The notes below the pieces were generated by a model. That model was not told the DNA's origin and searched no databases. It saw only the letters and a program-made list of their open reading frames with translations. Of a stretch of 64,000 nucleotides of DNA, positions 1 to 30,830 are shown piece by piece (the stretch's first letter is position 1; every line of letters begins with the position of its first letter). Source of the DNA: a virus. The position numbers and the translations under genes were made by a program. Location of the stretch: positions 1 to 64,000 of the IMG/VR virus record IMGVR_UViG_3300015370_000568; one strand, 5' to 3'.

Positions 1-47
1 AAAAAAGGTTTCCACCTTTCTCTCAATCCAGACTACAGAGATTCTGA
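1..47 (+). CDS. 3' end of a fifth DUF1566-family paralog (partial)
   Basis: Frame 3 reads KRFPPFSQSRLQRF*, matching the PFSQxxLRRF* tail of the four downstream paralogs, with the same AAAGGT..ACCTTT hairpin. Confidence 0.8.
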   Translation, partial: KRFPPFSQSRLQRF

Positions 48-58
48 AAGGCAGGATT

Positions 59-289
59 TTGGAACAGGAACGATTAAATCAAGTAGGTTTTCTTCTTGAG
101 GCTATTTATCATCTAGTACAACTATATTGTGCAAAAAGCAGCAAGCAGGCAACCTATCACTATACTTGGGCAGACTATTCTGTTACTAAGACTCTAAGCT
201 CTCTTTCTCCTAAAGTTGCTGATAATATGGGAAAACAACTTGATCAGCTTAGGAAAGAAGCTGTCAAGAGAGGACTAATAGAGGAGTAG
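59..289 (+). CDS. hypothetical protein
   Basis: ORF fills the gap between neighbours; GAAAGG upstream. Confidence 0.55.
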   Translation: MEQERLNQVGFLLEAIYHLVQLYCAKSSKQATYHYTWADYSVTKTLSSLSPKVADNMGKQLDQLRKEAVKRGLIEE

Positions 290-291
290 CA

Positions 292-873
292 TTGAATACT
301 GTCACTATTGTTGGAGTCGGAGCACTTGGTTCTCATGTAGCTCTTTTTGCTCGTAACTGGAAGAACTATAGGCTCCGACTTATAGATCATGACAAAATTG
401 AGTCAAAGAATATTATGGCCCAGGTTCATACAAAAATGGGGCTTGGCAACAATAAGGCTTTGGCTCTCCAGCAAGTAATCAAACAGCTCTTTGGCGTCCC
501 TATAGAGGCTTTCCCTAGAAAGCTAATTCCTGACAATGTAGAAATACTTCTAGGTCGCTCTTCTCTAGTTATTGACTGTACAGATAATATTGAGGCCCGT
601 AAACTAATTCAAAAGTTCACACAGGCCCATAATATTCCCTGTCTACATAGTGCTCTATCAGCTAGTGGCGATTTTGCCAGGATTGTCTGGACTGAACACT
701 TTGTTCCGGACCCAGAAGGAACTCCTGGGCAAGCTACTTGTGAAGATGGAGAAATGCTACCATTTTTTGCAGCTGTAGCAGCTCAAACAACTATTGTCGC
801 TCAAGAGTTTCTCTCAACTAGTCGAAGAACAAGTTATCAAATGACTCCCCAGTTCCTACTAAGAGTCGTCTAA
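292..873 (+). CDS. ThiF/E1-like adenylyltransferase
   Basis: IVGVGALGS nucleotide-binding loop, LIDHDKIESKN, VIDCTDN, candidate catalytic Cys in ATCED. Confidence 0.85.
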   Translation: MNTVTIVGVGALGSHVALFARNWKNYRLRLIDHDKIESKNIMAQVHTKMGLGNNKALALQQVIKQLFGVPIEAFPRKLIPDNVEILLGRSSLVIDCTDNIEARKLIQKFTQAHNIPCLHSALSASGDFARIVWTEHFVPDPEGTPGQATCEDGEMLPFFAAVAAQTTIVAQEFLSTSRRTSYQMTPQFLLRVV

Positions 874-1326
874 ATGTCTCGCTATCTAAAAATTAGTAGT
901 GAGATTATCTTCGATCCTTGTACAAACCTCCAATGGGCAAAGGATTATGTAGACAATAAGACCTGGACTCAAGCACAAGAATATTGCGATGAACTAAATG
1001 CCCAAAGATATGCAGGTTTTGATGACTGGCGATTGCCTACAATAGGAGAATTATGGACACTGATCGACCATTCTAGATTTAATCCAGCAAGCTTATTTCC
1101 TGATATGCCTTCAAAAAATTTCTGGTCGTCGTCGTCCTGCGCCTACAACACCGACTACGCGTGGAACGTCTGCTTCGACGTCGGCTTCGTGTACAACGGC
1201 TACAAGTCGTACGTTTACGCGGCGCGGTGCGCGCGGGGCGGACCTTTGGTCCTTGACTCTAAAAAGAAAGAGGGCAAGAAAGAAAGGTTACTACCTTTCT
1301 CTCAATTTAGGCTGAGAAGATTCTAA
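874..1326 (+). CDS. DUF1566 (Lcl C-terminal, CLec-fold) protein, DGR target 1
   Basis: D..TNLQW, TWTQAQEYC..LN, DWRLPTIGEL, FWSSS, AWxVxF motifs; variable repeat near the C-terminus. Confidence 0.9.
   Translation: MSRYLKISSEIIFDPCTNLQWAKDYVDNKTWTQAQEYCDELNAQRYAGFDDWRLPTIGELWTLIDHSRFNPASLFPDMPSKNFWSSSSCAYNTDYAWNVCFDVGFVYNGYKSYVYAARCARGGPLVLDSKKKEGKKERLLPFSQFRLRRF
1120..1260 (+). repeat. DGR variable repeat VR1 with IMH-like GC run
   Basis: 141-nt GC-rich repeat in four copies; differences fall mainly at positions 1-2 of NNC codons. Confidence 0.88.
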
Positions 1327-1781
1327 TGTCTCGCTTTCAAATCATTAACAATGAAATTGTACTAGATAAAGAAACAGGTCTTCAATGGACCAAGAACTAT
1401 GTAATAGAAAAGACTTGGGACCAAGCACAAGAATACTGCAACGAACTAAACGCCCAAAGATACGGAGGTTTTAGTGATTGGCGAGTACCGACAATTGCAG
1501 AACTAATAACCTTGATTGACTTTGAAAGAAGGGGCCCAGCTAGTTCTTTTCCTGATATGCCTTCAAAAACTTTCTGGTCGTCGTCGTCCTACGCCAACAT
1601 CACCGCCAACGCGTGGTACGTCTCCTTCGCCCACGGCAACGTGAACAACGCCCACAAGACGAACGTCTTCGCGGCGCGGTGCGCGCGGGGCGGACCTTTG
1701 GTTCTTGGCTCTCAAGATAAAAAGAAGAGAAAGAAGGAAGTTCCTTTATCTTTCTCTCAGCTTAGACTGAGAAGGTTCTAA
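1326..1781 (+). CDS. DUF1566 protein, DGR target 2
   Basis: Paralog of 874..1326 with WRVPT..EL and FWSSS motifs and a VR. Confidence 0.9.
   Translation: MSRFQIINNEIVLDKETGLQWTKNYVIEKTWDQAQEYCNELNAQRYGGFSDWRVPTIAELITLIDFERRGPASSFPDMPSKTFWSSSSYANITANAWYVSFAHGNVNNAHKTNVFAARCARGGPLVLGSQDKKKRKKEVPLSFSQLRLRRF
1572..1712 (+). repeat. DGR variable repeat VR2
   Basis: Aligns without gaps to VR1, VR3 and VR4. Confidence 0.88.
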
Positions 1782-1794
1782 AAAGGAGAATCTG

Positions 1795-2634
1795 ATGGTT
1801 TCCAAAGTCCACCTTCTAATTATCGACCCTCAAATAGATTTTACAGAACCTGGCAGACCTCTTTATGTCCCCGGTGCTGATAATGATATGAGACAAATCG
1901 TGAAATTACTGAACTTCCTGATAGAAAGGAATGGACCTACTAGTATCACTGTTTCATTGGATAGTCATTCTCCCTTCACTGTTAGTCATCCTTGTATGTT
2001 TATTAATAGTGAAGGTCAACATCCAGAACCCTTTATCCAAATTCATCTAGAAGATGTCTTCAGTGGAACATGGCAAGTTATTAACATTGATTGGTACACA
2101 ATAGTTGTACAATACCTCAAGTTTCTACAAGAACAGGGAAAGAGCCTAACTATTTGGCCTCCACACTGTATTGTAGGTTCTTCAGGACATGCCATTTGTC
2201 CTGTAGTAAATGAAGCAATTATTAAGTGGGAAATGGAGTTTAACTGGTCAGCAGTACGTCTTCTTAAAGGATTGTCACAGGATAGCGACCAATTCTCTAT
2301 TTTTCATCCTGTTTTTGCTTCTCTAGCAGATAGAAAAGAGGCAATTGATCTAGCATCTAAGTTTGCAGAAAGCGATCTCCTACTTGTTTGCGGTGAAGCA
2401 GCAAGTCACTGTGTAATAGAGTCTCTTGAAAGCTATTACAGTATCTGCGAAAGGTATCAATTGAGAGAGCTAGGAACTCATAGACAAGTTATTCTTCTAA
2501 CTGATGCAACTTCTAGTGTACCAGGCTATGAAGAAGAGACCCAGAAAAGGCTGGATAAGCTTCAAGAGAAGGGACTTCTTTTCTCAACTGTTAAGGAAAT
2601 TCTCAATAATATTAATCCTTTGCTAAAGGAATAA
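1795..2634 (+). CDS. pncA: nicotinamidase (isochorismatase family)
   Basis: LLIIDPQIDF, SLDSH, WPPHC, GEAASHCV motifs; adjacent to pncB. Confidence 0.85.
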   Translation: MVSKVHLLIIDPQIDFTEPGRPLYVPGADNDMRQIVKLLNFLIERNGPTSITVSLDSHSPFTVSHPCMFINSEGQHPEPFIQIHLEDVFSGTWQVINIDWYTIVVQYLKFLQEQGKSLTIWPPHCIVGSSGHAICPVVNEAIIKWEMEFNWSAVRLLKGLSQDSDQFSIFHPVFASLADRKEAIDLASKFAESDLLLVCGEAASHCVIESLESYYSICERYQLRELGTHRQVILLTDATSSVPGYEEETQKRLDKLQEKGLLFSTVKEILNNINPLLKE

Positions 2635-2637
2635 AAA

Positions 2638-3918
2638 TTGACTGCTTTACTAACTGACCTTTATCAGATTAGCATGATGCAAGGCTACTATCTAGCCGGT
2701 AAGCATCAGAATCTAGCAACTTTTGAGCTAACATTTAGAAAGGGCTATGGTAATCAAGCTTGGCTAATTTTTGCTGGGCTTGAATCAGTCCTACAATTCA
2801 TCAAAAAGCTGCGGTTTACTGAGGAGGATATCAGGTATCTTAGTAATATGGGCTTTGACTCTTCTTTTCTTAGAGCTCTTGAAGATTTCAAGTTTACTGG
2901 CGATATTTTTTCTCTTCCAGAAGGCACAGTTTTCTTCCCTAGAGAGCCAGCTCTAATTGTTCAAGCTCCTTTATGGGAAGCCCAGTATCTTGAAACAATG
3001 ATTGTTAACTTTATTGGCTTTCAAACCCTAGTAGCTACCAAGGCAAAACATTATAGATTCGCCGCTAGGGATAAACAACTGATCGAAATGGGACTACGTA
3101 GAGGTCATGGGTTTAACACAGAAATGTCCCGAGCTGCACGAATTGGAGGCTTTGACTATACTTCTAATGTTGAAGCTGGAAGACTCTATAGTATTCCAAC
3201 AGTAGGAACAATGGCCCATAGTTGGGTAATGTCTTTTCAGGAAGAAACTGAAGCTTTCATTTCTTTTGCAAATCATGGCAGACCACCAATTTCTCTACTT
3301 CTTGATACCTACAGTACCCTTGATAGCGGTCTCCCTCATGCTCTGAAAGTTATTACAAACAGAGAAGGAATTAGTAGTATCCGTCTTGATTCAGGTAATC
3401 TTCTTGAACTAAGTAAAACAGTTAGAGAAGAGCTTGATTATCTAGGAGATGAAGGACAACACGTTAAGATTATTGTTTCCGGCGACCTTACTCCTGATAG
3501 CATAGCTACTCTTGAAGCTCAAAATGCTCCAATTGATATGTATGGAGTCGGCTCAGCTCTAGCAACACTCCATCCTTTCCCTATTCATACTGCTGTCTAT
3601 AAGCTTTGTCAGATTATAGATAGTAGGACAGGACAAATTCGCAAGATTTGTAAAAAGTCCGATTCACCTGCTAAAACTACTCTTCCAGGTCGAAAAACTT
3701 TAGTTCGAGACTATGACACTAAGAAAGACACTATTGTTCCAGTTCTACCAACATACAATCATACTTCCCCTCAAGACCCTTTTATTGTGGCAATCAAACA
3801 AGGACAGACTACTCAATTCCTTCCAACAATGACTGAGAAAGCTAGACAAAGACTTCAAGATACTAACGAATTAGTTTTTAGTCCAGATTGGAAGGTAGAG
3901 ATTGATTCAAGTATCTAA
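2638..3918 (+). CDS. pncB: nicotinate phosphoribosyltransferase
   Basis: ALLTDLYQISM, EMGLRR, GTMAHSW, LLDTY, IRLDSG, SGDL, YGVG, VYKL motifs. Confidence 0.92.
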   Translation: MTALLTDLYQISMMQGYYLAGKHQNLATFELTFRKGYGNQAWLIFAGLESVLQFIKKLRFTEEDIRYLSNMGFDSSFLRALEDFKFTGDIFSLPEGTVFFPREPALIVQAPLWEAQYLETMIVNFIGFQTLVATKAKHYRFAARDKQLIEMGLRRGHGFNTEMSRAARIGGFDYTSNVEAGRLYSIPTVGTMAHSWVMSFQEETEAFISFANHGRPPISLLLDTYSTLDSGLPHALKVITNREGISSIRLDSGNLLELSKTVREELDYLGDEGQHVKIIVSGDLTPDSIATLEAQNAPIDMYGVGSALATLHPFPIHTAVYKLCQIIDSRTGQIRKICKKSDSPAKTTLPGRKTLVRDYDTKKDTIVPVLPTYNHTSPQDPFIVAIKQGQTTQFLPTMTEKARQRLQDTNELVFSPDWKVEIDSSI

Positions 3919-4093
3919 AGTGCAGAACTGGATTAGTAACAATGTTCCTCAGCTTCTAGGAGCTCTGGTTATTGTTATTGACTTGCTCGCAGCTATACTT
4001 TATCCAGTCTCTGAACTTCTTGCCTTAATTGCCTATCTTTTGTATAGAATTAAGGAAAGAAAACGACCCCTACTAATAGTGCCAGGAGTCTAA
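3902..4093 (+). CDS. small membrane protein
   Basis: Long hydrophobic stretch; ORF fits the gene order. Confidence 0.5.
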   Translation: MIQVSKVQNWISNNVPQLLGALVIVIDLLAAILYPVSELLALIAYLLYRIKERKRPLLIVPGV

Positions 4094-4094
4094 A

Positions 4095-4565
4095 GTGGAA
4101 TCAGATAGATTCCCCAGTTGGACAATCAATGGAGATCTAGTTATTCTAGATCGAAGAACTAGCCTTGAATGGACCGGATGCTTTGGCTCTAACCTAAACT
4201 GGGACCAAGCGCAAGAATACTGTGATACACTAAATTCACAAGCATATGCTGGACCTAACGACTGGCGATTGCCTACAATAGAAGAATTATGGACACTAAT
4301 TGATTTTCAGAGAGCTAACCCAGCAAGTTCATTTCCTGATATGCCTCCCAAAACTTTTTGGTCGTCGTCGTCTTACGCCTACAACACCGGCTACGCGTGG
4401 CTCGTCTACTTCGCCTACGGCCACGTGAACCACGACTACAAGACGTACGGATACGCGGCGCGGTGCGTACGGGGCGGACCTTCGGTTCTTGACTCTTCCA
4501 AGAAGAAAGAGGGCAAAAAAGAAAAGGTTCCACCTTTCTCTCAAATGCCTTTGAGAAGGTTCTAA
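4095..4565 (+). CDS. DUF1566 protein, DGR target 3
   Basis: DWRLPTIEEL, FWSSS, VR and PFSQMPLRRF tail. Confidence 0.9.
   Translation: MESDRFPSWTINGDLVILDRRTSLEWTGCFGSNLNWDQAQEYCDTLNSQAYAGPNDWRLPTIEELWTLIDFQRANPASSFPDMPPKTFWSSSSYAYNTGYAWLVYFAYGHVNHDYKTYGYAARCVRGGPSVLDSSKKKEGKKEKVPPFSQMPLRRF
4356..4496 (+). repeat. DGR variable repeat VR3
   Basis: Ungapped alignment to the other VRs. Confidence 0.88.
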
Positions 4566-5023
4566 TGCATCGCTTTCAAATCATTAGTAATGAAATTATT
4601 CTAGATGAAGAAACTAATCTTCAGTGGGCAATGAACTATGTAGAAAAAAAGACATGGGACCAAGCGCATGAATATTGTGATGAACTAAATGCCCAAAAAT
4701 ACGGAGGCTTTGATGATTGGCGACTGCCTACAATTGAAGAACTTAGAATGCTAGTTGATTATTCTAGATTTGACCCAGCAAGCTTGTTTCCTGATATGCC
4801 TCCCAAAACTTTCTGGTCGTCGTCGTCCTTCGCCTACAACACCGCCAACGCGTGGCTCGTCCTCTTCGACTACGGCAACGTGTACTACGACTACAAGACG
4901 AACGTTGGCGCGGCGCGGTGCGCGCGGAGCGGACCTTTGACTCTTAACTCTTCTAAGAAAAAGAGCAAGAAGAAAAAGGAAGTTCCCTTACCTTTTTTCC
5001 AATTACCTCTAAGAAGGTTCTAA
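4565..5023 (+). CDS. DUF1566 protein, DGR target 4
   Basis: Same motifs as targets 1-3. Confidence 0.9.
   Translation: MHRFQIISNEIILDEETNLQWAMNYVEKKTWDQAHEYCDELNAQKYGGFDDWRLPTIEELRMLVDYSRFDPASLFPDMPPKTFWSSSSFAYNTANAWLVLFDYGNVYYDYKTNVGAARCARSGPLTLNSSKKKSKKKKEVPLPFFQLPLRRF
4811..4951 (+). repeat. DGR variable repeat VR4
   Basis: Ungapped alignment to the other VRs. Confidence 0.88.
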
Positions 5024-20602: not shown

Positions 20603-21104
20603 AGTAACAACAGCTAAGGGAGTTTCAGGCACACGATTTCCATGTATTGCAAAAGTTTACTGGAAAGCAGGAGTTACTAAGGAGCTTACACCTAGGCCAG
20701 ACCCACGGCTATGTACAAGCACAGTTTATCATGCTTATGTACACCCAATCCAAGCAGTTCTTGCAGACTCCCTCCTTCATCTTAACTATCTTCTTGCAGG
20801 ACAACTTTGGGAAGCAGAAGGTGAGCCAGTAATCTGGGATTGTAGAAAAGTTGGCTGCTTCAAACTAACAACTATCAGACCAATCGAGACTCCTTCTGTA
20901 TCAGGCACACTTCTACTCTTTATTTTTAGAGAACTAAATACTCTTAGGCCAGCTTTGACACTACCTCCTGAATCAGCCATTACAGCTAGTTATCTCTTTC
21001 TCTCTGACTTTGATTCTATCTCCCCATGTGAGCTTCAGGAAGCATATGACATTGCTTGGAGGAAATGGAAGAAAACGGAAGAAAAAAATGAACTGGATGC
21101 CTGA
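20589..21104 (+). CDS. hypothetical phage protein
   Basis: LYKVT...LC..YHAY...LWEAEGE...KVGC pattern. Confidence 0.6.
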
Positions 21105-21909
21105 ACTCGAAAAGGCTCTTCAAGAAAATAGACTAGCTTTCAAATGCACTAACTGGGGCGGTTATCCATGTAACGGTGGCAAACAGGATCATCAGCTAGC
21201 CCTCGGGCCTGATAATGAACCGGGTGAATGGCTGCCTACCCAGAGAAGAGAGATGTGCTGTTCAGGCTACCATGTAACCGTTAAGCCATATCAATGGCAA
21301 GGCAGTCAGGTATGGCTCGTTGAAACAAAAGAGCCTATTAACCTGGCCAACGATAAGAGCTGTGTAAGCAGTCTTAGAGCTGTTGCACTAGTTAATCCGG
21401 CTGAATGTATCAATCCAGGGGTTTGGGTTGTAGCTTCAAAAGCTAATCTCTCTGAAGCTAATCTTTCTGGAGCTAATCTCTCTAATGCTGATCTTTCTAG
21501 AGCTGATCTCTCTGGAGCTAATCTTTGTAGCACTGATCTTCTTAACACTAATCTTTCCAGAGCTGATCTCTCTAGAGCCAACCTTACGAAAGCCAATCTT
21601 TCTAATGCTAATCTCTTTGGAGCTGATCTTACTGGAGCTGATCTCACTAGAGCTAACTTTCAAGGAGCTGATCTTACTGGAGCTAATCTACTTAGAGCTC
21701 ACCTTGCTGGAGCTGATCTCTCGGAAGCTAATCTAACCAGAGCTAACCTTCGAAAAGCTAATCTCTTAGGAGCTAATCTTTCTAGCGCCAATCTTCGTAT
21801 GGCTAATTTCTGTGAAGCTAACCTCTCTGAAGTTATTCTTTTTGAGGTTAGAAATGCTCATTCAGCTTTCAACTTTCCAGAAGAAATTGAAGGAGCTATC
21901 CAGAGGTAG
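21010..21909 (+). CDS. pentapeptide repeat protein (probable start near 21088)
   Basis: Long A(D/N)Lxx repeat tract after a Cys-containing N-terminal domain. Confidence 0.9.
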
Positions 21910-21994: not shown

Positions 21995-22082
21995 TCAAGG
22001 GTGACCGAGTGGCCGATGGTAACGGGCTGTTAACCCGTCGACTAACCCTCCACCGCAGGTTCAAATCCTGCCCCTTGAGCCA
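21995..22082 (+). tRNA. tRNA-Asn(GTT) with long variable region
   Basis: TCAAGGG/CCCTTGA acceptor, ACGGG-CTGTTAA-CCCGT anticodon arm, TTCAAAT loop, CCA. Confidence 0.85.
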
Positions 22083-22085
22083 TAA

Positions 22086-22160
22086 CCCTCGTTCGTCTAG
22101 CGGTTAGGACTCCACCCTTCCAAGGTGGAAGCGTCGGTTCGACTCCGACACGAGGGTCCA
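22086..22160 (+). tRNA. tRNA-Gly(TCC)
   Basis: Cloverleaf, CCACC-CTTCCAA-GGTGG, U73, CCA. Confidence 0.92.
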
Positions 22161-22213
22161 CTATCTTTCCTCTTAAATAGTCGCAACTTCCTCTTTTTTG
22201 AAAGGCGAATGAC

Positions 22214-23146
22214 ATGACATGGCAAGAGCTTCTTGACCAAGTAACTCTGGATGCTGCTGATTGTCGAGATGTTCGAAAGGCTTTGAGCCTTTGCGAATAC
22301 AAAGCTACTGAAGATACTGGGGACAATATGTTGGAGAATGCCCGAATGACTCCTTGGGCATTCGGACAGATGTGTCAGCGACTAGGTATTCCTACTTCCT
22401 ATATGAATATTTGTCCTTCTCAGCTGAGAGAAACCAATATTCTCTATTGGCTAACTCGGTCACCAAGAGATGTAATGATTCGCTTTCGAGAAGATACAGT
22501 CAGAGCATTAGTATCTGACAAGTACGGCCCGCTTGATGACCATAAAATGGTTAAGCTAACAATGGATAAAGCTGACGACCAACTAGATATTGTCAGAGCC
22601 AGCTGTAGTGATTCTTTTACTGAGCTAGTAACTCTTGACAAGCTAGGGCCTCTAGGAGTTAGAGACCTACAAGACCATGAGTTTCGTATTGGTCTAATTC
22701 TTCATAACAGTATGGTTGGCCGGGCTGCTTTTCGAGCTAGACTTGCAGTTCTGAGACAAAGACAGTCTTGCTGGTGGATATATCTTTCATCTGGTAGTGT
22801 TAGTGTATCCAAGCGGCACATCTATATTGATGAGGACCAGTTTCTTCTTAAACTAGAAGCTGTCCTAGCTCAATTGAATACATTCCGAGTAGCAGCAGAA
22901 CAAGCTCTTGAGTCAGCCCTTATTGATAAGGTTAAGCCAGTTGAGCTAGCAAGGTTGAAGCATAAGATGGCTCTCATCTTTGGAGCTGTGTGGGTAAAAG
23001 AAAGATGGCCCGGCTTTGAGCAGGATTCCTCTCTTACTAAGTATACTCTAGCAAGTATTATTGCTGAAGAAGCTAATAGAGATGGAATTTCTCCTGAAGA
23101 TCATGTATATGGCTCACTCATTGCTGGAAGACTAGTAGGAGTATAA
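22214..23146 (+). CDS. DUF932-like phage protein
   Basis: AFGQMCQRLGIP, VRALVSDKY, LHNSMVG motifs. Confidence 0.7.
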   Translation: MTWQELLDQVTLDAADCRDVRKALSLCEYKATEDTGDNMLENARMTPWAFGQMCQRLGIPTSYMNICPSQLRETNILYWLTRSPRDVMIRFREDTVRALVSDKYGPLDDHKMVKLTMDKADDQLDIVRASCSDSFTELVTLDKLGPLGVRDLQDHEFRIGLILHNSMVGRAAFRARLAVLRQRQSCWWIYLSSGSVSVSKRHIYIDEDQFLLKLEAVLAQLNTFRVAAEQALESALIDKVKPVELARLKHKMALIFGAVWVKERWPGFEQDSSLTKYTLASIIAEEANRDGISPEDHVYGSLIAGRLVGV

Positions 23147-23153
23147 CTGTCCT

Positions 23154-24377
23154 ATGGCTCAAGTAGCTCATCTGGTAATGTGTACCTCCGCCAACAACAA
23201 TAAATACTACAACATGGAAGAAAAAGGTGGCGAGATTCATGTAGAATATGGCCGAGTAGGAGTTACTTCTGTCTCTTGTGTCTATCCATTAAGTAAATGG
23301 AACTCGCTCTATAACTCTAAGATTAAGAAGGGCTATAGAGATATCACTGCTATGAAAGCAGTACAGACAAGTAATCCTTCAGGATTTCTTGATATCTCGG
23401 ACAGAGCTATTGCTACTCTTATTGCTGACCTTCAAGCCTTTGCTAAAAAATCAGTGTCTCAAAACTACACTGTTTCATCAGAAGCAGTAACTGCTCAACA
23501 AGTTGCAGAGGCACAGAGAATTCTAGATAGCATTGCTCAACAACTTTCTCCATCAGCAGATGGTAGAGCTATTGATGCTATGCTTCTCAATCTCTACCAC
23601 GTAATTCCAAGAAAAATGGATCACGTCCATAATTTCTTGATTCGTGGTACTAATTTAACAGATACCAAGCTCTATAAGAGAGCTCAAGAGTTAGTAAGTA
23701 ATGAGCAAGCTACTCTTGATGTCATGAGCGGCCAGGTTTCTTTACATACAGCCCAACAGACTCAACAAGCTACTCCTGATGACCCCATTACTATTCTTGA
23801 TGCTATTGGTATCTCTCTAACAATAACAGCTCAAGAAGATATAGATATCATCAAAACTCAGCTCGGAGGAATGCAAAATCAGTACCAAACGTCCTATAAA
23901 GTAACAAACAAAAAGACAGAAGAAAGATTTCAAAAATGGTTACAGTCAACAAAGAATAAGACGACCAAGCTCTTCTGGCATGGTAGTCGTAATGAGAACT
24001 GGTGGAATATCCTAGGCTCTGGATTAATGATTCGTCCTTCTGGAGTAGTACATACTGGAAGTATGCTCGGAAATGCCATTTATGGAGCTGACCGAGCTAA
24101 GAAATCTCTAGGCTATACATCAATCAATGGCTCTTATTGGGCTAGAGGTAGTGCTAGACGAGCATTTATGGGTCTCTTCCTCTTTCATCTTGGCAAACAA
24201 TTAAAGCTAACTAATTTCCCTTCTGATGCTCATCGCTTTTCTTCCAAGTATTTAGCTAGTAAGGGAGGTTATGATAGTGTATTTGCCTCAGCAGAAAAAG
24301 GAATGCTTCGTAACAATGAATTTACTGTCTATAGACCTGACCAGGTAACTATCAGATATCTGGTAGAAATTAAGTAA
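23154..24377 (+). CDS. PARP-like ADP-ribosyltransferase (WGR + regulatory + catalytic domains)
   Basis: NNNKYY..YGRVG (WGR), LYHVIPR, LFWHGSR, GNAIYGAD..KSLGY, NNEF (H-Y-E triad). Confidence 0.88.
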   Translation: MAQVAHLVMCTSANNNKYYNMEEKGGEIHVEYGRVGVTSVSCVYPLSKWNSLYNSKIKKGYRDITAMKAVQTSNPSGFLDISDRAIATLIADLQAFAKKSVSQNYTVSSEAVTAQQVAEAQRILDSIAQQLSPSADGRAIDAMLLNLYHVIPRKMDHVHNFLIRGTNLTDTKLYKRAQELVSNEQATLDVMSGQVSLHTAQQTQQATPDDPITILDAIGISLTITAQEDIDIIKTQLGGMQNQYQTSYKVTNKKTEERFQKWLQSTKNKTTKLFWHGSRNENWWNILGSGLMIRPSGVVHTGSMLGNAIYGADRAKKSLGYTSINGSYWARGSARRAFMGLFLFHLGKQLKLTNFPSDAHRFSSKYLASKGGYDSVFASAEKGMLRNNEFTVYRPDQVTIRYLVEIK

Positions 24378-24379
24378 GC

Positions 24380-24467
24380 AGAGAGATGCCTGAGAGGTTA
24401 AAAGGGCCGCCCTGCTAAGGCGTGCGAGGTAACACTCACGTCAGTTCGAATCTGACTCTCTCTGCCA
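24380..24467 (+). tRNA. tRNA-Ser(GCT)
   Basis: AGAGAGA/TCTCTCT acceptor, CTGCTAA loop, long variable arm, CCA. Confidence 0.85.
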
Positions 24468-24506
24468 ACTTATAACTTTTTCTAAGCCTGATGAAAGGGA
24501 AAAGCA

Positions 24507-24755
24507 ATGACCATTTTCAAGTTTTCACTTCCTGTTCATGGCCTTAATACAGTTCTAATGCCCAAGTGGGCAGACATTGTGCATTGTGATTTTTCAGGTG
24601 ACGACCCAGCCATTTGGGTCTATTGTAATCAGGAAGCTTTGAAAGAAGAGCGACAGTTTCTTGTTCTAGGCACTGGGAAGCCTATTCCTAAGAAGGCCAT
24701 CTACCTGGGCACAGCAGTTAAACCAGGGGTTGGTGTTCATGTCTTTGAAGTATAA
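24507..24755 (+). CDS. small conserved phage protein
   Basis: TIFKF..., GTG.PIP, YLGT, VHVFE pattern. Confidence 0.65.
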   Translation: MTIFKFSLPVHGLNTVLMPKWADIVHCDFSGDDPAIWVYCNQEALKEERQFLVLGTGKPIPKKAIYLGTAVKPGVGVHVFEV

Positions 24756-24765
24756 GATATCTAGA

Positions 24766-24843
24766 GACCTCGTCGTCTAGTCTGGCTCAGGATCCTGGCC
24801 TTTCACGCCAGAGACGCGGATTCAAATTCCGCCGAGGTCGCCA
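24766..24843 (+). tRNA. tRNA-Glu(TTC)
   Basis: CTGGC-CTTTCAC-GCCAG; CCA. Confidence 0.92.
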
Positions 24844-24857
24844 TACATATACTACTT

Positions 24858-24945
24858 GCCGGTGTGGAGGAATCAGGCATACTCCTCCCACTTAAAATGG
24901 GAGGCCCTTAGTGGATTGAGGGTTCAAATCCCTCCACCGGCACCA
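24858..24945 (+). tRNA. tRNA-Leu(TAA)
   Basis: TCCCA-CTTAAAA-TGGGA; variable arm; CCA. Confidence 0.92.
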
Positions 24946-24956
24946 AAAGAAAAAGA

Positions 24957-25157
24957 ATGTCCAGACGTGAGTATATAACTACTGAGCCACCTCTTAACCC
25001 ACCAGAAATCTGTGAAGAATGTGGCAAAGCAGAAGCCTTCAGGTGGATAAGAGATGGTAACTGGCAGCCTTACTATCTTTGTCATCATTGCTATCTAGAA
25101 TTTGATACAGTAAGAGGTGAATTTCTGTTTGAAATTGAAAAAGAAAGGAACAGATAA
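24957..25157 (+). CDS. small Zn-finger protein
   Basis: CEEC ... CHHC. Confidence 0.55.
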   Translation: MSRREYITTEPPLNPPEICEECGKAEAFRWIRDGNWQPYYLCHHCYLEFDTVRGEFLFEIEKERNR

Positions 25158-25159
25158 TA

Positions 25160-25405
25160 ATGACCTCAGGACAAATGATGGTCTGGGCAGCAGTCCTAGC
25201 TAAAGAACTAGATATCTCTAATCCCCCAAGACATGTCCTTGAAGACGAAACACAATGGAGTAAATGGGAAGACAATCGTCTTATTACTGCTATTGAACAA
25301 GCAAATCATGTAGTAAAATGGCTTGAAACAATAGGACCTCAAGTAAAAGAAGCAATGGGCGGAGAGACTGACTCTTATATCACTCTCATGGAAATGATTC
25401 AGTAG
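25160..25405 (+). CDS. hypothetical protein
   Basis: ORF between tRNAs, GAAAGG upstream. Confidence 0.55.
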   Translation: MTSGQMMVWAAVLAKELDISNPPRHVLEDETQWSKWEDNRLITAIEQANHVVKWLETIGPQVKEAMGGETDSYITLMEMIQ

Positions 25406-25406
25406 T

Positions 25407-25492
25407 GGTCCTGTAGGAGAATTGGTATATCCAAGAGGCTTAGACCCTCTGGCCTAACAGCCGTCCTGGTTCGAATCCGGGCAGGACCACCA
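25407..25492 (+). tRNA. tRNA-Leu(TAG)
   Basis: AGAGG-CTTAGAC-CCTCT; variable arm; CCA. Confidence 0.92.
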
Positions 25493-25555
25493 CACACACA
25501 CACAATCTTAGTTGCAGAAAGTACCACTTAATGGTACCTTTAGTGAATGAAACCT

Positions 25556-25631
25556 CGGAGAATGGGCAAGTTGGTATGCCACCTGTTTTGGGGACAGGAA
25601 ATCGGGAGTTCAAGTCTCCCTTCTCCGACCA
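25556..25631 (+). tRNA. tRNA-Pro(TGG)
   Basis: CCTGT-TTTGGGG-ACAGG; CGGAGAA/TTCTCCG acceptor; CCA. Confidence 0.9.
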
Positions 25632-25638
25632 TTCTTGG

Positions 25639-25712
25639 TGCGGTATGGTGAAACAGCATCACACTAGGCTCATAACCTTGAGTTTCCAGTGCAACTCTGG
25701 ATACCGCTACCA
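25639..25712 (+). tRNA. tRNA-Met(CAT), possibly initiator-like (1:72 mismatch)
   Basis: CTCATAA loop; GCGGTA/TACCGC acceptor; CCA. Confidence 0.8.
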
Positions 25713-25714
25713 CT

Positions 25715-25951
25715 ATGACTATTAAGCGTTTCTCCTCTAAAAAGCTTCAGAAAGAATTCAAAGTCATTGGGGCTTGTGCTGACTTGCTAAGTTCTCTGAA
25801 AAATGAAGATGCACAGGCACGAGCAGCAGGTTACTTACTTCATCTCTTCGGAAAAGAAGAGATAGAGGAAGAAGATAAGCAAAAAGTAAAGATAGAAGCA
25901 ATTGGCTTTACGTTACCAGAAAACGATGAAGATGAAGATGAAGGCGCGTAG
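25715..25951 (+). CDS. acidic-tailed hypothetical protein
   Basis: ORF whose stop codon lies inside tRNA-Val. Confidence 0.6.
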   Translation: MTIKRFSSKKLQKEFKVIGACADLLSSLKNEDAQARAAGYLLHLFGKEEIEEEDKQKVKIEAIGFTLPENDEDEDEGA

Positions 25952-26017
25952 TTCAGTTGGGAGAACGCTGCCCTTACAAGGCAGAAGTCGCAGGTCCAAA
26001 TCCTGTCGCGCCTACCA
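25942..26017 (+). tRNA. tRNA-Val(TAC)
   Basis: CTGCC-CTTACAA-GGCAG; CCA. Confidence 0.92.
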
Positions 26018-26027
26018 CCTTTCTTGT

Positions 26028-26122
26028 GGGAAGATAACGTCCGCAGGCTGTAAACCTGCCCTGCTTTAACAACTGGCGTACGGTCTAGCAGCAAGGAGGT
26101 TCAAATCCTTCTCTTCCCACCA
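26028..26122 (+). tRNA. atypical tRNA-Tyr(GTA), D-armless with a very long variable arm
   Basis: GGGAAGA/TCTTCCC acceptor, GCAGG-CTGTAAA-CCTGC anticodon arm, T arm, A73, CCA; only 8 nt between acceptor and anticodon stems. Confidence 0.75.
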
Positions 26123-26132
26123 TCTAAATTAT

Positions 26133-26207
26133 GCGGCAGAAGCTCAAGTGGCTGAGCATCTGACTGTGGATCAGAAGGCTGTGAGTTCAAATCTCACCTG
26201 CCGTTCA
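26133..26207 (+). tRNA. tRNA-His(GTG), atypical 3' end
   Basis: TCTGA-CTGTGGA-TCAGA; T arm; no clean encoded CCA. Confidence 0.75.
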
Positions 26208-26268
26208 CTTGACTAAATAGTCTGAATTGACTAGTAAGTCAAACTAGGCTATTTAATCAACTATATGT

Positions 26269-26343
26269 GGAGCTATAACATAGAAGTCTATGTGCTTGAC
26301 TGAAAATCAAGAGATCCTGGAGCGTTACCAGGTGGCTCCACCA
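26269..26343 (+). tRNA. tRNA-Phe(GAA)
   Basis: CTTGA-CTGAAAA-TCAAG; atypical T loop; CCA. Confidence 0.85.
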
Positions 26344-26346
26344 TTA

Positions 26347-26435
26347 GGAAGGTTGGCCGAGCGGTTTAAGGCGGTAGTCTTGAAAACTACAGAGGTTAAT
26401 AGCCTCCAGAGGTTCGAATCCTCTACCTTCCTCCA
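26347..26435 (+). tRNA. tRNA-Ser(TGA)
   Basis: GTAGT-CTTGAAA-ACTAC; variable arm; CCA. Confidence 0.93.
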
Positions 26436-26457
26436 CAAACTATAGGAGAAAAATTAG

Positions 26458-26694
26458 ATGGTTAGATGTCCTCAATGTAATAGTGAAGTCTACTATGTTC
26501 AAGATGTAACTGAGTATCATTCTTTCGACTTGCTAGATAATGATGATGACTTTGTAGACCTAATAGCACTAGTTGACAGTGTTCCTAATAACGATAAAGG
26601 CTATCGTCTTCACTGTAGTCAATGTCCTAATCAACCAACTATGACTGAGCTAAGGCAATATTATGAAAATAAGACTGACTCATGTAACGAATAG
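26458..26694 (+). CDS. small Zn-ribbon protein
   Basis: CPQC ... CSQC; AGGAG RBS. Confidence 0.6.
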   Translation: MVRCPQCNSEVYYVQDVTEYHSFDLLDNDDDFVDLIALVDSVPNNDKGYRLHCSQCPNQPTMTELRQYYENKTDSCNE

Positions 26695-26968
26695 TTCTTC
26701 CTCTTCTTTTGTAGTTTCGCGAGCAGCGATTACTGGGAAGCAACTACAGCTCATTCATAACCATATTCTCATGGCCGAAGAATTGGGGCTTCATAAGAGC
26801 CCTCCATGGCAAATTATTGAAGATGGCCATGTCATAATTGGGACAACCTCTATGGATAACTTTGATATGCATTTCTTCTTGAAACACATTGGGGTTCCTC
26901 TTAATAGAGTCTTCTGGGCTAGAGCCATTCTGAGAAGGGATAGGGATGAATGTCTTTCTTTAGAGTAA
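26663..26968 (+). CDS. MKIRLxHVTNSSSSSF-tag protein 1
   Basis: N-terminal motif shared by six ORFs. Confidence 0.8.
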   Translation: MKIRLTHVTNSSSSSFVVSRAAITGKQLQLIHNHILMAEELGLHKSPPWQIIEDGHVIIGTTSMDNFDMHFFLKHIGVPLNRVFWARAILRRDRDECLSLE

Positions 26969-28026
26969 CAGTAGAAACAGTAGAGAAGGTCTGGCCGCAT
27001 TCAAATGCTGATAGATTAGAGCTAGCCTCTCTTCAGAACATGAGCTTCCAATTCTGTGTACAAAAAGGGTTATGGAAGTCTGGGGATAAGTGTCTCTATT
27101 TCCCAGTTGATTCTCTCCTCCCCGATAAGACAGCTGAGCTACTAGGAGTAAAAGGATTACTCGCTGGGAAAGAAAAGAATAGAATCAAGACAATTAGACT
27201 ACGAGGAGAATACAGCCAAGGTATCATTGGCCCTTGTGACCTAGTCCCTGAGGCTATTGATTATGAACAGCTTACTGAATACTTTGGGGTAGTTAAGTAT
27301 GAACCACCAGTAACAGAAGAGAAGAGTGCCAGGCTTTTCCCTTTACCAGCTTTTGTTCCTACCTATGATATTGAAGGAGCAGATAGATATAAGCTGGCGG
27401 CTGATGAAATGATGGATTTGCCCATAGCTATTACTGAAAAGCTTGAAGGTATGTGTTCCTCTATCAGCTGGAATCCCGCGACAGCAAAGATTCATCTATG
27501 TTCTCATCGAAAAGATGTAGTACCTAAAGAAGATGGCAGTTCCCATTTCTTTTGGACCACAGCTACAAGAATAGGGCTCTTTGATAAGCTAAGAAAGCTA
27601 GTAGAGTTACTACAAAAAGATGGGCTAGCGTTTCAAGATTCAACTGTCTCTATCTTTGGCGAGTTTTGTGGGCCAAGAGCTCAGGGGAATATTTATGGAC
27701 TACCCAAACATGACATCTACTGTTTTGATATCCGAATAGGAGAACAGTGGCTCGACTTCCCTCTTTGGAAAGACTATTGCCTCAAGGTAGGTCTTACTAC
27801 CGTTCCTATCCTTTGGGATGGACGAGGAACATTGAGAGAAGTTCTAGAAGCCTCCAAGGTTGATAGTATTCCAAAGCTATCAGATGGAGAGTCAGTATTA
27901 AGAAAGAATACAAGGCGGGAAGGAATTGTTATCCGGCCAGTTATTGAACAAAGGTCTGAAATTCTTCATGGCCGGCTTCAATTAAAACAACGATCTCCAG
28001 CCTACTTAGCAAAGTCGGAGAACTAA
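26950..28026 (+). CDS. RNA ligase, DRB0094/Rnl5-like
   Basis: HSNADRLELA, LRGEYSQG, TEKLEG, FGEFCG, YCFDI, REGIVIR motifs. Confidence 0.88.
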   Translation: MSFFRVTVETVEKVWPHSNADRLELASLQNMSFQFCVQKGLWKSGDKCLYFPVDSLLPDKTAELLGVKGLLAGKEKNRIKTIRLRGEYSQGIIGPCDLVPEAIDYEQLTEYFGVVKYEPPVTEEKSARLFPLPAFVPTYDIEGADRYKLAADEMMDLPIAITEKLEGMCSSISWNPATAKIHLCSHRKDVVPKEDGSSHFFWTTATRIGLFDKLRKLVELLQKDGLAFQDSTVSIFGEFCGPRAQGNIYGLPKHDIYCFDIRIGEQWLDFPLWKDYCLKVGLTTVPILWDGRGTLREVLEASKVDSIPKLSDGESVLRKNTRREGIVIRPVIEQRSEILHGRLQLKQRSPAYLAKSEN

Positions 28027-28028
28027 AA

Positions 28029-28469
28029 TTGATTCTTGCTATGACTGCTGGTCTCCCTAGTGCTGGGAAGACCACATTTTGTAGACAACAATTACTTACT
28101 AACTACGTCTATATCAGTCCTGAGTTCCTTGCTCCTCAACAAACAGAGCTGCTGATTCGGACATGTATACAGGCAAACCAACAGCTAATAATTGATGCCC
28201 CTAATCTAAGCAGGGATGACCGAGCAAAGTGGCAAAAGTATAAACCTCATGACTGGAAAAGTTACTGCTTCTACTTCCCTCCTAACATAGACGAATGTCT
28301 TGAAAGGAATAGACAACGGGAAAAAGGTAAATTGCCTGCTCATGTAATCTCTAATGCAGCTATGTTCTGGCGTGAGCCAGAATTAGAAGAAGGTTTTCAC
28401 TCGATTTTCAAAGTCACAGTCCTAGCAGAGAAAAACTTTTCAGTACTATGGGAGAAAAGAGATGCCTAA
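28029..28469 (+). CDS. P-loop polynucleotide kinase-like protein (AAA_33)
   Basis: GLPSAGKTT, IIDAPN, CLERNRQR, PELEEGF; coupled to the RNA ligase. Confidence 0.78.
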   Translation: MILAMTAGLPSAGKTTFCRQQLLTNYVYISPEFLAPQQTELLIRTCIQANQQLIIDAPNLSRDDRAKWQKYKPHDWKSYCFYFPPNIDECLERNRQREKGKLPAHVISNAAMFWREPELEEGFHSIFKVTVLAEKNFSVLWEKRDA

Positions 28470-29175
28470 GAAGGATTTTACCGTTGTAGCTTGCATCCTT
28501 GACCGTTCTGGCTCAATGCAAGGCCTTGAAAATGATGTCATTGGTGGCTATAACACCATGCTCAGAGAACAAAAGCTGCTGCCTGGCAAAGCTAAGTTCA
28601 CTCTTGTCCTCTTTGACGATAAGTATGAGCTAGTCTATGACCTTGTACCTCTTCAAAATGTTCCTGAGCTAACTAAGGAAGTGTACTACACTCGTGGATT
28701 CACTCGTTTGGTCGATGCTTGCTGCGAGACTATCGACTCTCTTGGTGCTCAGTTGGATGCAATGTGTGAAGAGGAGAGACCTGAAGCAGTAGTAATCATT
28801 ATCAATACAGACGGGCAGGAGAATGATTCACAAGAGTATTCTTCAGCTCAACTAGCAGAAAAGATTAAGACTCAGCAGGATACCTACAAATGGAAGTTCA
28901 TTTTCCTTGGTGCTAATCAAGATGCTTTTGCTACGGCAAATCAGTTCCACATTCAGAAAGGCGGGACCTATAACTTTGCGGCTAACTCCGCAGGAATCCG
29001 TGCCAGCTATGCTACCTCTTCAACCCAGATTGGAAGAGCAAGAAGAGTATCAATACAGAATATGCAAGAGCTAGGATTTCAGGGCGATATTCTAGCCCAA
29101 GACCCTATCAATCAGGGAGTAGATAGAGATACAACAGGAGACTCCAATGAAGATTCGTCTAGCTCATGTAACTAA
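28462..29175 (+). CDS. von Willebrand factor A domain protein
   Basis: ILDRSGSM MIDAS motif, TDGQEN, FLGANQDA. Confidence 0.88.
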   Translation: MPKKDFTVVACILDRSGSMQGLENDVIGGYNTMLREQKLLPGKAKFTLVLFDDKYELVYDLVPLQNVPELTKEVYYTRGFTRLVDACCETIDSLGAQLDAMCEEERPEAVVIIINTDGQENDSQEYSSAQLAEKIKTQQDTYKWKFIFLGANQDAFATANQFHIQKGGTYNFAANSAGIRASYATSSTQIGRARRVSIQNMQELGFQGDILAQDPINQGVDRDTTGDSNEDSSSSCN

Positions 29176-29656
29176 CTCATCTTCTAGTAGCTTTCTAGTA
29201 GCTTTTCCTGAAGAGCAGCCAGATACTCCTGAGAAGATGCAAAAGCTTCTGTTTGGAGAACAAGAACTACTTTACCAGACATTTGAAGATGAACCCTGGC
29301 CTACAGAGGAACTAGCTAGAGCAGTATTAGAAAGCCGGCAAACAGTTAAGACTATACCTCTTGAAGTAGAAGCTGTTGTAGCAATGCTAGTTACAGGCTA
29401 TGGCTCATGGAATCATCTTGCAGAAGACCTTACTCAAGGAATGAGTCTAGACGAAAAGTGCAAAAGTTGGCAGGCAATCACAGATTTTGAAGCAGACAAA
29501 GTAGCAAGAGCTTTTATTGAACAAGTCTTACGAAGATTTCCTAAGACTAAAGAGCTTGAAGTCTACGAGTTTGCTGATGAAACTCCTTTAGGTAGTGCAT
29601 TAGAATACAGTAGTGTCTTCAGTACTCTTCCTCATATAACAATTAGTCATCACTAG
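29147..29656 (+). CDS. MKIRLxHVTNSSSSSF-tag protein 2
   Basis: Shared N-terminal motif. Confidence 0.8.
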   Translation: MKIRLAHVTNSSSSSFLVAFPEEQPDTPEKMQKLLFGEQELLYQTFEDEPWPTEELARAVLESRQTVKTIPLEVEAVVAMLVTGYGSWNHLAEDLTQGMSLDEKCKSWQAITDFEADKVARAFIEQVLRRFPKTKELEVYEFADETPLGSALEYSSVFSTLPHITISHH

Positions 29657-29664
29657 GAGCATCA

Positions 29665-30471
29665 ATGATTCCTCATCTAGACGTAGAGAAGGCTTGTGAC
29701 CAAATCGTCAGAGAATACACAGACTTTCTCTCCAAGACGTGGGTTCGTAGACCAGTAGTTGGTATCTCAGGCGGAATTGATTCAGCTGTAGCTGCTGCTT
29801 TATCTTTACGAGCTACTAGAAAGTTCAATACACAGCCGCCTGTATTAGTACATCTTCCAATGGACCATTGTTCCTCTAATGACTCTCTTTTAAGAGCCAG
29901 AGAACTAGCTGTTTCCTTAGGTCTCTATATGAAAGAAGTTTCAATTACCTCAATAGTTAGAGCCTGTGACATAGCCTTTTCAAATGTAGGAATTCTAGGA
30001 CGTTCCTATGTCTCAGACAAGTTTCAGCTGGGAAACATTATGGCCCGAGTAAGAATGATTTCCCTTTGGGCTCTTGCTCGAGCAGAGTCAGGTTTTGTTG
30101 TCGGCACGGGAAATAGAACAGAAACTCTGCTAGGCTACTGTACTCTTCATGGTGATGATGCTTGTATCATTAACCCATTGGCTGGTCTCTACAAGCAATG
30201 GGTATATGAACTGGCAGAGTATCTAAAAATTTCTGAATCAATCATCAAAGCTCCTCCATCGGCAGAACTTTGGTCAGGACAGACAGATGAACAAGAGTTA
30301 GGTTTTTCGTATGAAATTGCCGATGAAGTCTGCTATGCTCATGACCATCTCAATTATCCTTTGCAGGAGGTTACTCAAAGTATTAAAGATGTTATTGCTC
30401 AAATCAATAGAACATCCTTTAAGAGAGAAGTTCCCTATAATCTAGGAACTAAACTTCCGTTGGCCCTGTAG
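29665..30471 (+). CDS. nadE: NH3-dependent NAD+ synthetase
   Basis: GISGGIDS, NIMARVRM, GTGNRTE, GYCTLHGD, PPSAELWSGQTDEQELG. Confidence 0.93.
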   Translation: MIPHLDVEKACDQIVREYTDFLSKTWVRRPVVGISGGIDSAVAAALSLRATRKFNTQPPVLVHLPMDHCSSNDSLLRARELAVSLGLYMKEVSITSIVRACDIAFSNVGILGRSYVSDKFQLGNIMARVRMISLWALARAESGFVVGTGNRTETLLGYCTLHGDDACIINPLAGLYKQWVYELAEYLKISESIIKAPPSAELWSGQTDEQELGFSYEIADEVCYAHDHLNYPLQEVTQSIKDVIAQINRTSFKREVPYNLGTKLPLAL

Positions 30472-30536
30472 CTCAAGGGTGGCAGCTCTGGTCTTATAAA
30501 CCAGGGGAGGTAGTTCGAGTCTACCCAGGGTCACCA
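30462..30536 (+). tRNA. tRNA-Ile(TAT)
   Basis: CTGGT-CTTATAA-ACCAG; CCA. Confidence 0.88.
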
Positions 30537-30582
30537 GAAAAGATAATTGACCAGATACTAAAAAAAGATAGAATAAAAAGTA

Positions 30583-30656
30583 CGACTCATAGGATAACGG
30601 TAGTCCGTATCTCTGATAAGGATAAAGAGGTAGTTCGACTCTACCTGAGTCGACCA
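30583..30656 (+). tRNA. tRNA-Ile(GAT)
   Basis: TATCT-CTGATAA-GGATA; CCA. Confidence 0.88.
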
Positions 30657-30663
30657 GGAAAAT

Positions 30664-30739
30664 GGGGTCGTAGCTCAATTGGGAGAGCACCTGACTTGCA
30701 CTCAGGAGGTTGCCGGTTCGATTCCGGCCGACTCCACCA
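30664..30739 (+). tRNA. tRNA-Ala(TGC)
   Basis: G3:U70 pair; CTTGCAC loop; CCA. Confidence 0.94.
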
Positions 30740-30741
30740 GT

Positions 30742-30816: not shown

Positions 30817-30830
30817 AAGAAAGAAGTTAT

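Follow-up and report, generated by a model that had tools for sequence, protein, structure and literature searches.

GC-rich islands in the lectin-like genes of a large AT-rich phage: variable regions of a multi-target diversity-generating retroelement

Bases 1-64,000 of the 131,084-bp IMG/VR virus record IMGVR_UViG_3300015370_000568 (hereafter the window) carry four small genes coding for C-type-lectin-like proteins, each of which bears towards its 3' end a short GC- and CpG-rich island in an otherwise AT-rich phage genome. Judging from the pattern of nucleotide variation in these islands and in further copies lying upstream of the window, they are the variable regions (VRs) of a multi-target diversity-generating retroelement (DGR). 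As the reverse transcriptase (RT) and the template repeat (TR) of this element were sought and not found in the DNA at hand, the locus is the target side of a DGR and not a complete DGR. We think it probable that the RT-TR module resides elsewhere on the same phage genome, in a part that is not on hand. The targets and their VRs are as follows:

874..1326, plus strand: target gene T1, 150 amino acids (aa), Lcl_C/DUF1566 domain (PF07603, E 5.3e-29)
1123..1244, plus strand: VR of T1, a GC/CpG island (GC 63.3%, CpG observed/expected ratio 1.80), with variable columns at codon positions 1 and 2
1326..1781, plus strand: target gene T2, 151 aa, Lcl_C (PF07603, E 9.4e-32)
1575..1696, plus strand: VR of T2 (GC 65.6%, CpG observed/expected 1.61)
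4095..4565, plus strand: target gene T3, 156 aa, Lcl_C (PF07603, E 6.3e-34)
4359..4480, plus strand: VR of T3, with point changes beyond the variable columns
4565..5023, plus strand: target gene T4, 152 aa, Lcl_C (PF07603, E 4.8e-32)
4814..4935, plus strand: VR of T4 (GC 63.3%, CpG observed/expected 1.72)

The targets each encode no more than an Lcl_C (C-type-lectin-like) domain and, after it, a short basic tail. All of T1-T4 match the PF07603 profile over positions 2-117 of 117 with 101-117 bits (cut-off 34.9), and a sequence search of the PDB with the targets returned a weak sole match, 8q4e (E 0.0034). In total there are at least six targets, T-1 and T0 upstream of the window and T1-T4 within it, arranged as three pairs. 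The upstream copies were recovered by a VR pattern scan on two JGI metagenome contigs of the same phage. One of these, L009 (1,473 bp), is identical to window positions 1-749 (0 mismatches) and holds the complete T0 along with part of T-1 upstream of it. The other, L010, covers the initial 1,423 nt of a contig of 17,367 bp and holds a JAB-like open reading frame (ORF), a small ORF ending in PFGS, T-1 and the start of T0. A 151,112-bp contig with all six targets is also on record.

Results and Discussion

Composition and borders of the variable regions

A preliminary description of this DNA had portrayed the VRs as GC- and CpG-rich islands in an AT-rich genome, switching abruptly at the codons for F-W-S-S-S and returning to the AT-rich state after GGACCT, and both parts of this portrayal are borne out. 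The record as a whole has 41.7% GC (standard deviation 4.8 points in 100-nt windows) and a CpG observed/expected ratio of 0.52, as against 63.3-65.6% and 1.61-1.80 in the VRs, which are thus conspicuous as CpG islands against a genome-wide CpG depletion. In 100-nt windows GC peaks at 0.64, 0.68, 0.61 and 0.61 (positions 1151-1250, 1601-1700, 4401-4500 and 4851-4950), with flanks of 0.33-0.44. Measured against the record, the four VRs lie at z = 4.8-5.4, a height reached by at most 0.37% of 125-nt windows; beyond them, a GC content of 62% is attained only by an insert at 31.4 kb. The gene bodies have a GC content of 0.37-0.42 and a GC content at third codon positions (GC3) of 0.28-0.31, the VR blocks (~122 nt) of 0.63-0.66 and 0.88-0.95, respectively, and the tails that follow the VRs a GC content of 0.34-0.40. 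The islands start at Phe-Trp-Ser codons, with the TGG codon of the F-W-S-S-S-S motif at 1123, 1575, 4359 and 4814, and end after GGACC. Their codons are among the rarest of the phage: TCG accounts for 6.3% of its Ser codons, GCG for 5.0% of Ala and CGG for 9.9% of Arg codons. We also noted that the VRs are made almost wholly of G/C-ending codons that the phage otherwise avoids, and that the window has 19 tRNA genes in three clusters (21995-32626), 18 of whose 19 anticodons read A/U-ending codons.

The Phe codon preceding the VR is TTC in five of the six copies, compared with 38% TTC genome-wide (P = 0.033), which suggests that the putative template-derived stretch begins at or before that codon. 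At the other end, a ~27-nt block made nearly wholly of G and C closes each VR and is a putative counterpart of the initiation of mutagenic homing (IMH) sequence. DGR VRs usually form the end of the protein; here, a post-VR tail that is conserved in every target, a Lys-rich linker followed by P-F-S-Q-x-x-L-R-R-F-stop (1245-1326, 1697-1781, 4481-4565 and 4936-5023), is in this respect unusual. The tail DNA of T1, T3 and T0 has a possible short AAAGGT/ACCTTT hairpin ~55 nt past the VR, a form that T2 and T4 lack.

Signature of rewriting from a common template

Among T1-T4, 31 of the 128 VR columns vary, and 28 of these 31 fall at codon position 1 or 2 (binomial p = 0.0024). The remaining 97 columns are identical, whereas the 200 nt upstream of the VRs are just 67-80% identical, which argues for one common overwriting template. 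In the VR, 38 of 41 third codon positions are likewise invariant, as against 30 of 80 upstream. When T0 is added, 94 of the 128 columns are identical in all five copies, and T0-T4 agree at every non-variable VR position, despite a divergence of 20-33% between the bodies of the six copies. Adenine is the commonest base in the variable columns (60 of 140 cells), which have a G+C content of 23%. The variation is presumed to be adenine-specific. The claim that the template must be GC-rich stands, in that 72 of the 86 non-A invariant positions of the reconstructed scaffold are G or C (84%) and the predicted TR has ~56% GC.

Two copies depart from this uniformity. T-1 differs at four non-A positions, and T3, in which two sites show a change from C to T, has changed to TTT at the Phe just before the VR, to TCT at the fourth Ser, and to TA for CG in the GC-rich 3' block. 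T3 and T-1 may no longer be rewritten, and T3 may be a frozen copy.

In a multi-target DGR of the kind that we envisage, one template repeat would be copied by an error-prone RT into cDNA, which would then overwrite each VR such that template adenines could become any base and the other positions would be copied faithfully. With a common template, the non-variable columns would be identical and the variable ones would fall at codon positions 1 and 2. Furthermore, the VR would keep the adenine-poor, G+C-rich scaffold of the template irrespective of the composition of the surrounding genome. Two other sources of the pattern were considered and set aside. Common descent or protein-level selection fails to explain an identical scaffold together with confined variation, and an assembly artefact as the source of the islands is at odds with the presence of the same VRs in independent contigs.

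GC-rich islands in self-contained phage DGRs

The GC-richness of the VRs had been taken in the preliminary description to point to a host-derived template. As a control we used 13 GenBank phage loci with a DGR-type RT, a chosen, non-random set, in which a TR/VR pair was accepted if at least 80% of the mismatches were adenine in one copy. Such a pair was found in 10 of the 13 loci, and none was found in cr55_1, LBR48 and the H. canis prophage. The pairs compare with their loci as follows:

Seven loci with 30.7-41.5% GC: VR +17.6 to +23.8 points over the locus (z 2.6-5.4); TR +2.3 to +14.4 points
Three loci with 46.7-59.5% GC: VR +3.3 to +9.1 points over the locus; TR -3.0 to +2.8 points

The excess seen in the present phage thus recurs in all seven AT-rich phages, which have an RT and a TR of their own. 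The control VRs have CpG observed/expected ratios of 0.87-1.72, against 0.47-1.18 for their loci. Bacillus phage BalMu-1 (NC_030945) is nearly the same in composition as the present phage, with 41.5, 55.8 and 63.3% GC in locus, TR and VR, compared with 41.7, a predicted 56 and 63-66%. Given that AT-rich phages with a self-contained DGR have such an island too, a GC-rich VR island is a generic feature of AT-rich phage DGRs and no sign of a host template. As a side observation from these controls, the RT genes of the crAss phages cr6_1 (L026, 2260-3288) and cr53_1 (L027, 8001-9023) have in-frame stops under translation table 11, which would presumably fit stop-codon recoding in crAss-like phages.

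The related proposal, that the cassette was recently acquired from a high-GC host, fares no better: the gene bodies have a GC3 of ~0.30, like the phage, and as they thus have the phage's own codon usage, an acquisition, if there was one, would not be recent. Likewise, the 'host-type fragment' at 31.4 kb to which the template had been likened could be tied to no organism. It is a ~550-bp insert of up to 79% GC (window 31440-31990) within an ORF at 31175-32245 that remains open across it. In another frame it has a 115-aa ORF (31467-31814), downstream of which lie a stretch resembling a ribosome-binding site and then a second start. Among 5.8 billion proteins the sole match of this 115-aa protein was itself, on a 1,204-bp contig. 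The insert could be a chimeric join or real foreign DNA.

Search for the reverse transcriptase, the template and Avd

The absence of an RT ORF and of a template from the 64 kb, as first reported, holds and extends to the whole 131,084-bp record, which is classed as 'linear' and has a CheckV completeness of 65%. In this record there are no matches to RVT_1 (PF00078) at E<=1 and none at E<=10 to Avd (PF05635), a protein that is not universal among DGRs. In tblastn searches with 10 phage DGR RTs, the best match in the record has an E-value of 0.31, compared with <=1e-38 for cross-matches of the control RTs, and with the Avd of BalMu-1 the best E-value in the record is 0.85. A DNA search of the record with the VR (E<=10) recovered only the four VR copies, and no fifth VR- or TR-like copy; a repeat search within the window also gave only the four VR copies.

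Since the record is ~65% complete, the absence of the RT from it is weak evidence. On the minus strand at its 3' end lie sheath, baseplate and tube-like genes along with very large virion genes. No head module can be clearly made out there, and Terminase_6N and Terminase_6C have no matches in the record. Going by the gene order usual in such phages, genes for the head and for packaging would be expected past that 3' end. At the other end, at least 16 kb more sequence exists upstream of the record.

The preliminary description had also proposed that a template be sought in bacterial genomes. None was found in a scan of 185,579 species genomes (GTDB), in which the two-anchor VR pattern gave three matches, all of them located in high-GC DNA and attributable to chance, as the sequence between the anchors is dissimilar. 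The 5' anchor of this pattern opens with the Trp codon, and hence a TR starting three bases later would be missed by the scans of the JGI contigs and of GTDB.

Alleles and recent activity

The clearest sign of activity comes from two alleles of T0 in a protein collection, P0003 and P0004, which differ at 16 of 149 residues, all of them within the 19 variable codons, and are identical at the other 133. Because all 16 differing codons are variable ones, the element is active or was so recently. At least for T0, rewriting has been recent compared with every other change in the population; around it, three assemblies show 0 mismatches over 749 and 586 nt of flank. The assemblies also break here, with the record beginning 33 nt past the T0 VR and the 17,367-bp JGI contig stopping at offset 15 of that VR. 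Such breaks fit what is expected of a polymorphic repeat. Two other targets show no such change: the T3 sequence is unchanged across all three cluster members (T3 protein calls of 156, 156 and 98 aa; contigs of 151,112, 3,842 and 131,084 bp), and the T-1 VR does not differ between L009 and L010.

Four sequencing runs were compared as assembled contigs, among the matches listed. Run X2, from another study (2025), has a VR-like contig with 17 differences from T1, all at variable columns; it matches none of the six known VRs and thus represents a new allele of T1 or else a seventh copy. Run X1 has two extra VR-like contigs of 138 nt (depth 8.0) and 114 nt (depth 23.8), and its T1 VR contig has a depth of 19.7 compared with ~37 in neighbour contigs. 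These contigs and depths fit within-sample alleles, and as contig depth is no measure of them, no claim is drawn from it. Among the matches listed for X1, no contig was TR-like and bore foreign flanks where a VR ends or begins, a result that is uninformative, with positions 1-400 and 601-1000 being without cover. Runs X3 and X5 have short contigs that overlap the T4 VR by 37-45 nt and have unlike flanks, from which no conclusion is drawn.

Where does the RT-TR module reside?

An RT-TR module on the same phage genome is, in our assessment, the probable answer. It would lie either in the ~16 kb further upstream or in the missing region expected to hold the head and packaging genes, from where it would act on six non-adjacent targets. 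The preliminary description had offered a cassette elsewhere on the phage, coupled to a recent high-GC acquisition, as one of two options. Its first half survives as the best explanation, given that the record is incomplete and that non-adjacent phage targets are known, and its second half does not. According to Wu et al. (2018; PMC5758913), phage-associated DGRs can have non-adjacent targets at distances from the RT of up to ~50 kb, and two such DGRs are without any adjacent target. Moreover, the fact that six diverged copies have been kept uniform argues for a stable linkage to one template.

Several observations weigh against this reading. Every one of the 10 control loci has its TR no more than a few hundred bases downstream of a VR; in the present phage, none of the six targets is followed by an RT or TR, and the 126 kb downstream contain neither. 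On the 17,367-bp upstream contig the two-anchor VR pattern has one match, which is the T-1 VR, and a TR in those ~16 kb, if present, would differ in an anchor. In the JGI metagenome contigs the pattern found only the two VR-bearing contigs of the same phage, and a phage-borne TR, which is expected to be as abundant as the VRs, should have assembled. Three scans of IMG/VR for TR-like sequence gave 0, 0 and 2 unrelated matches. Furthermore, the G+C excess of the present VRs lies in the invariant scaffold, which at 84% of non-A positions exceeds all 10 control TRs, for which the range is 50-71%; that the cassette descends from a lineage richer in G+C is plausible. Finally, RVT_1 was found in none of 50 large-phage records that share the E1 gene of this phage (see below), 18 of them at least 90% complete, and DGRs are for this reason not a trait of the wider group of E1-bearing large phages.

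The two matches from the IMG/VR scans are Lcl_C-like genes of phages with 67-70% GC and not a template. In them (L099 1577-1606 and L100 148-177, from phages of 67.5% and 70.4% GC) all 21 specified bases of the mid-VR motif are shared, and by this comparison the scaffold codons would be those of high-GC relatives.

The principal alternative, which we regard as unlikely, is that a host chromosome, plasmid, satellite or co-infecting phage supplies the RT and TR that rewrite the phage VRs in trans. The DNA at hand lends it some support: there is no RT, TR or Avd in 131 kb, no second pattern match on the upstream 17-kb contig, and none of the six clustered targets has the usual adjoining TR-RT, and yet the VRs are still rewritten, so that an RT and a TR would have to act somewhere. 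That such action is feasible is indicated by the plasmid-expressed avd-TR-brt, which works in trans according to an excerpt of Wu et al. (PMC5758913). The bias of the phage tRNAs, 18 of 19 of which serve A/U-ending codons, is also in keeping with it. Such tRNAs are usually read as a sign of a host richer in G+C than the phage. However, no template was found in the 185,579 species genomes or on non-phage JGI contigs, the record is incomplete, and the GC-richness from which the idea arose is generic. The uniformity of T0-T4 at the non-variable VR positions in the face of diverged bodies, with T-1 departing at four, implies a long and stable linkage to one template, which is easier with the TR on the same genome. 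In the same vein, the available excerpts of Wu et al. (PMC5758913) argue that targets not inherited with their DGR are not expected for phages. Hence, a large groundwater phage with at least six hypervariable lectin-like binder genes and no diversifying machinery of its own, which borrows a cellular hypermutation system, is an unlikely prospect; no description of a phage using a DGR encoded elsewhere was found in the literature searched, which was in part available as excerpts.

More doubtful still is that the targets are orphans, whose RT-TR was lost recently and whose VRs are unchanging fossils. This would account for the lack of an RT or TR anywhere searched, for the changes of T3 and T-1 at non-variable positions, as would befit decaying copies, and for the constancy of T3 in three cluster members and of the T-1 VR in L009 and L010. 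It sits poorly with the two T0 alleles, which differ at 16 variable codons with the other residues identical and the flanks free of mismatches, and with the further VR variant in run X2, as one RT-less lineage would hold one allele per VR. The halt of both JGI assemblies that reach the T0 VR fits a standing heterogeneity of that VR, and five VRs have stayed identical at all non-variable columns. The last alternative, foreign DNA that came from a high-GC genome through horizontal transfer or gene conversion without any DGR, is very improbable: abrupt borders, rare codons and the two high-GC phage contigs (67.5% and 70.4%) that share the 21 specified mid-VR bases speak for it, but the patches all occupy one and the same in-frame position of a conserved Lcl_C domain, and transfer gives no variation that is restricted, across six copies and the T0 alleles, to the first two codon positions of a shared set of columns.

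Gene neighbourhood and other features

An RT-TR module elsewhere on the phage genome thus being our preferred reading, we now turn to the setting of the targets. The remaining features at the array are as follows:

1..48, plus strand: 3' tail of T0 (KRFPPFSQSRLQRF, stop), whose gene is cut by the start of the record; the tail is coded by bases 3-47, as read from the sequence
292..873, plus strand: mini E1/ThiF gene between T0 and T1 (PF00899, E 4.4e-23)
1795..3918, plus strand: two genes that lie between T2 and T3 and so divide the array, namely a 279-aa ORF without a Pfam match and a nicotinate phosphoribosyltransferase (NAPRT; NAPRTase_N, E 1.1e-31)

Bases 1-45, from the T0 tail, are 78% alike to 1280-1324 and 67% alike to 4519-4563. 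The pairs of targets are divided by orf95 and the mini E1/ThiF gene in one place and by the 279-aa ORF and NAPRT in the other. Taken across the minus strand of L010 (1-1423), L009 and window positions 1-873, the gene order is a JAB/MPN-like gene (with the motif HTHP..S..D), the small ORF ending in KVPFGS, T-1, T0, orf95, the mini E1/ThiF gene, T1 and T2. The DGR target array thus sits inside a gene set of the JAB, ubiquitin-like (Ubl) and E1 type. Homologues of the E1 gene are found in 68 IMG/VR loci of large phages; in the 50 E1-bearing records examined for RVT_1, Lcl_C gave one weak match, which is under the cut-off.

Relatives of the array itself did not emerge. Single-protein searches of IMG/VR with T2, the JAB-like ORF and the DNA polymerase found no relatives, and neither did an IMG/VR search with the alignment of the six targets. 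A tblastn search of T2 against 50,697 phage records found no match, and one against plasmids found seven records with 27-41% identity, which are too remote to use.

Elsewhere in the window, a 268-aa ORF at 29665-30471 is NAD synthetase-like by eye, the NAPRT gene being situated apart from it, at the split in the array (1795-3918). The NAD+ synthesis genes of jumbo phages are reportedly the subject of a paper (PMC11662467). Six ORFs share at their start the motif M-K-I-R-L-x-H-V-T-N-S-S-S-S-S-F (26662-26715, 29146-29199, 36787-36840, 39140-39193, 40411-40464 and 40755-40802) and form a paralogous family. An ORF at 21010-21909 has 15-nt tandem repeats at 21381-21885 (22 registers, 60-72% identity), which would yield a pentapeptide repeat.

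Comparison with known systems

The DGR of Bordetella phage BPP-1 (mtd VR - avd - TR - brt) resembles the present locus in having a C-terminal VR in a lectin-fold phage binding protein, with variation at codon positions 1 and 2. The protein in question, Mtd, is reportedly a tail-fibre protein. The GC-rich block at the 3' end of the VR is also found where BPP-1 has its IMH, as described in an excerpt of Wu et al. (PMC5758913). In contrast, BPP-1 has one target with avd, TR and brt directly downstream, whereas the present phage has at least six stand-alone targets of 150 aa and none of RT, TR and Avd in 131 kb. BalMu-1, for all its likeness in composition, is self-contained and has a single target (annotated as SUMF1/EgtB/PvdO family), Avd, TR and RT within 2 kb. 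A closer organizational parallel in terms of one TR serving several targets away from the RT is offered by the Treponema denticola DGR, with its seven non-adjacent targets, and by the phage-associated DGRs (Wu et al. 2018); in those, however, RT and TR are both known and share the replicon of their targets, whereas neither has been found here. Eight tandem targets of one DGR are described for Stenotrophomonas in an excerpt of Wu et al. 2018. That DGR is bacterial and has a complete cassette, unlike the present array, which is split by E1 and NAPRT and belongs to a large phage.

Conclusions

As far as composition goes, the finding is biology that was already known. When a lectin-like gene of an AT-rich phage has a GC/CpG island at its 3' end, the island is the mark of a DGR VR, and not evidence for foreign DNA or for a host template. 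What sets this locus apart is its organization: the array comprises six or more stand-alone mini targets, which makes it unusually large for a phage, and it is situated within a JAB-Ubl-E1 set and has no adjacent RT-TR. Surveys centred on the RT, which by an excerpt of Roux et al. 2021 (PMC8144416) are blind to remote targets, cannot see loci such as this one. If it were true that the complete genome has neither RT nor TR, this phage would provide an instance in which the DGR that a phage uses is encoded outside its own genome.

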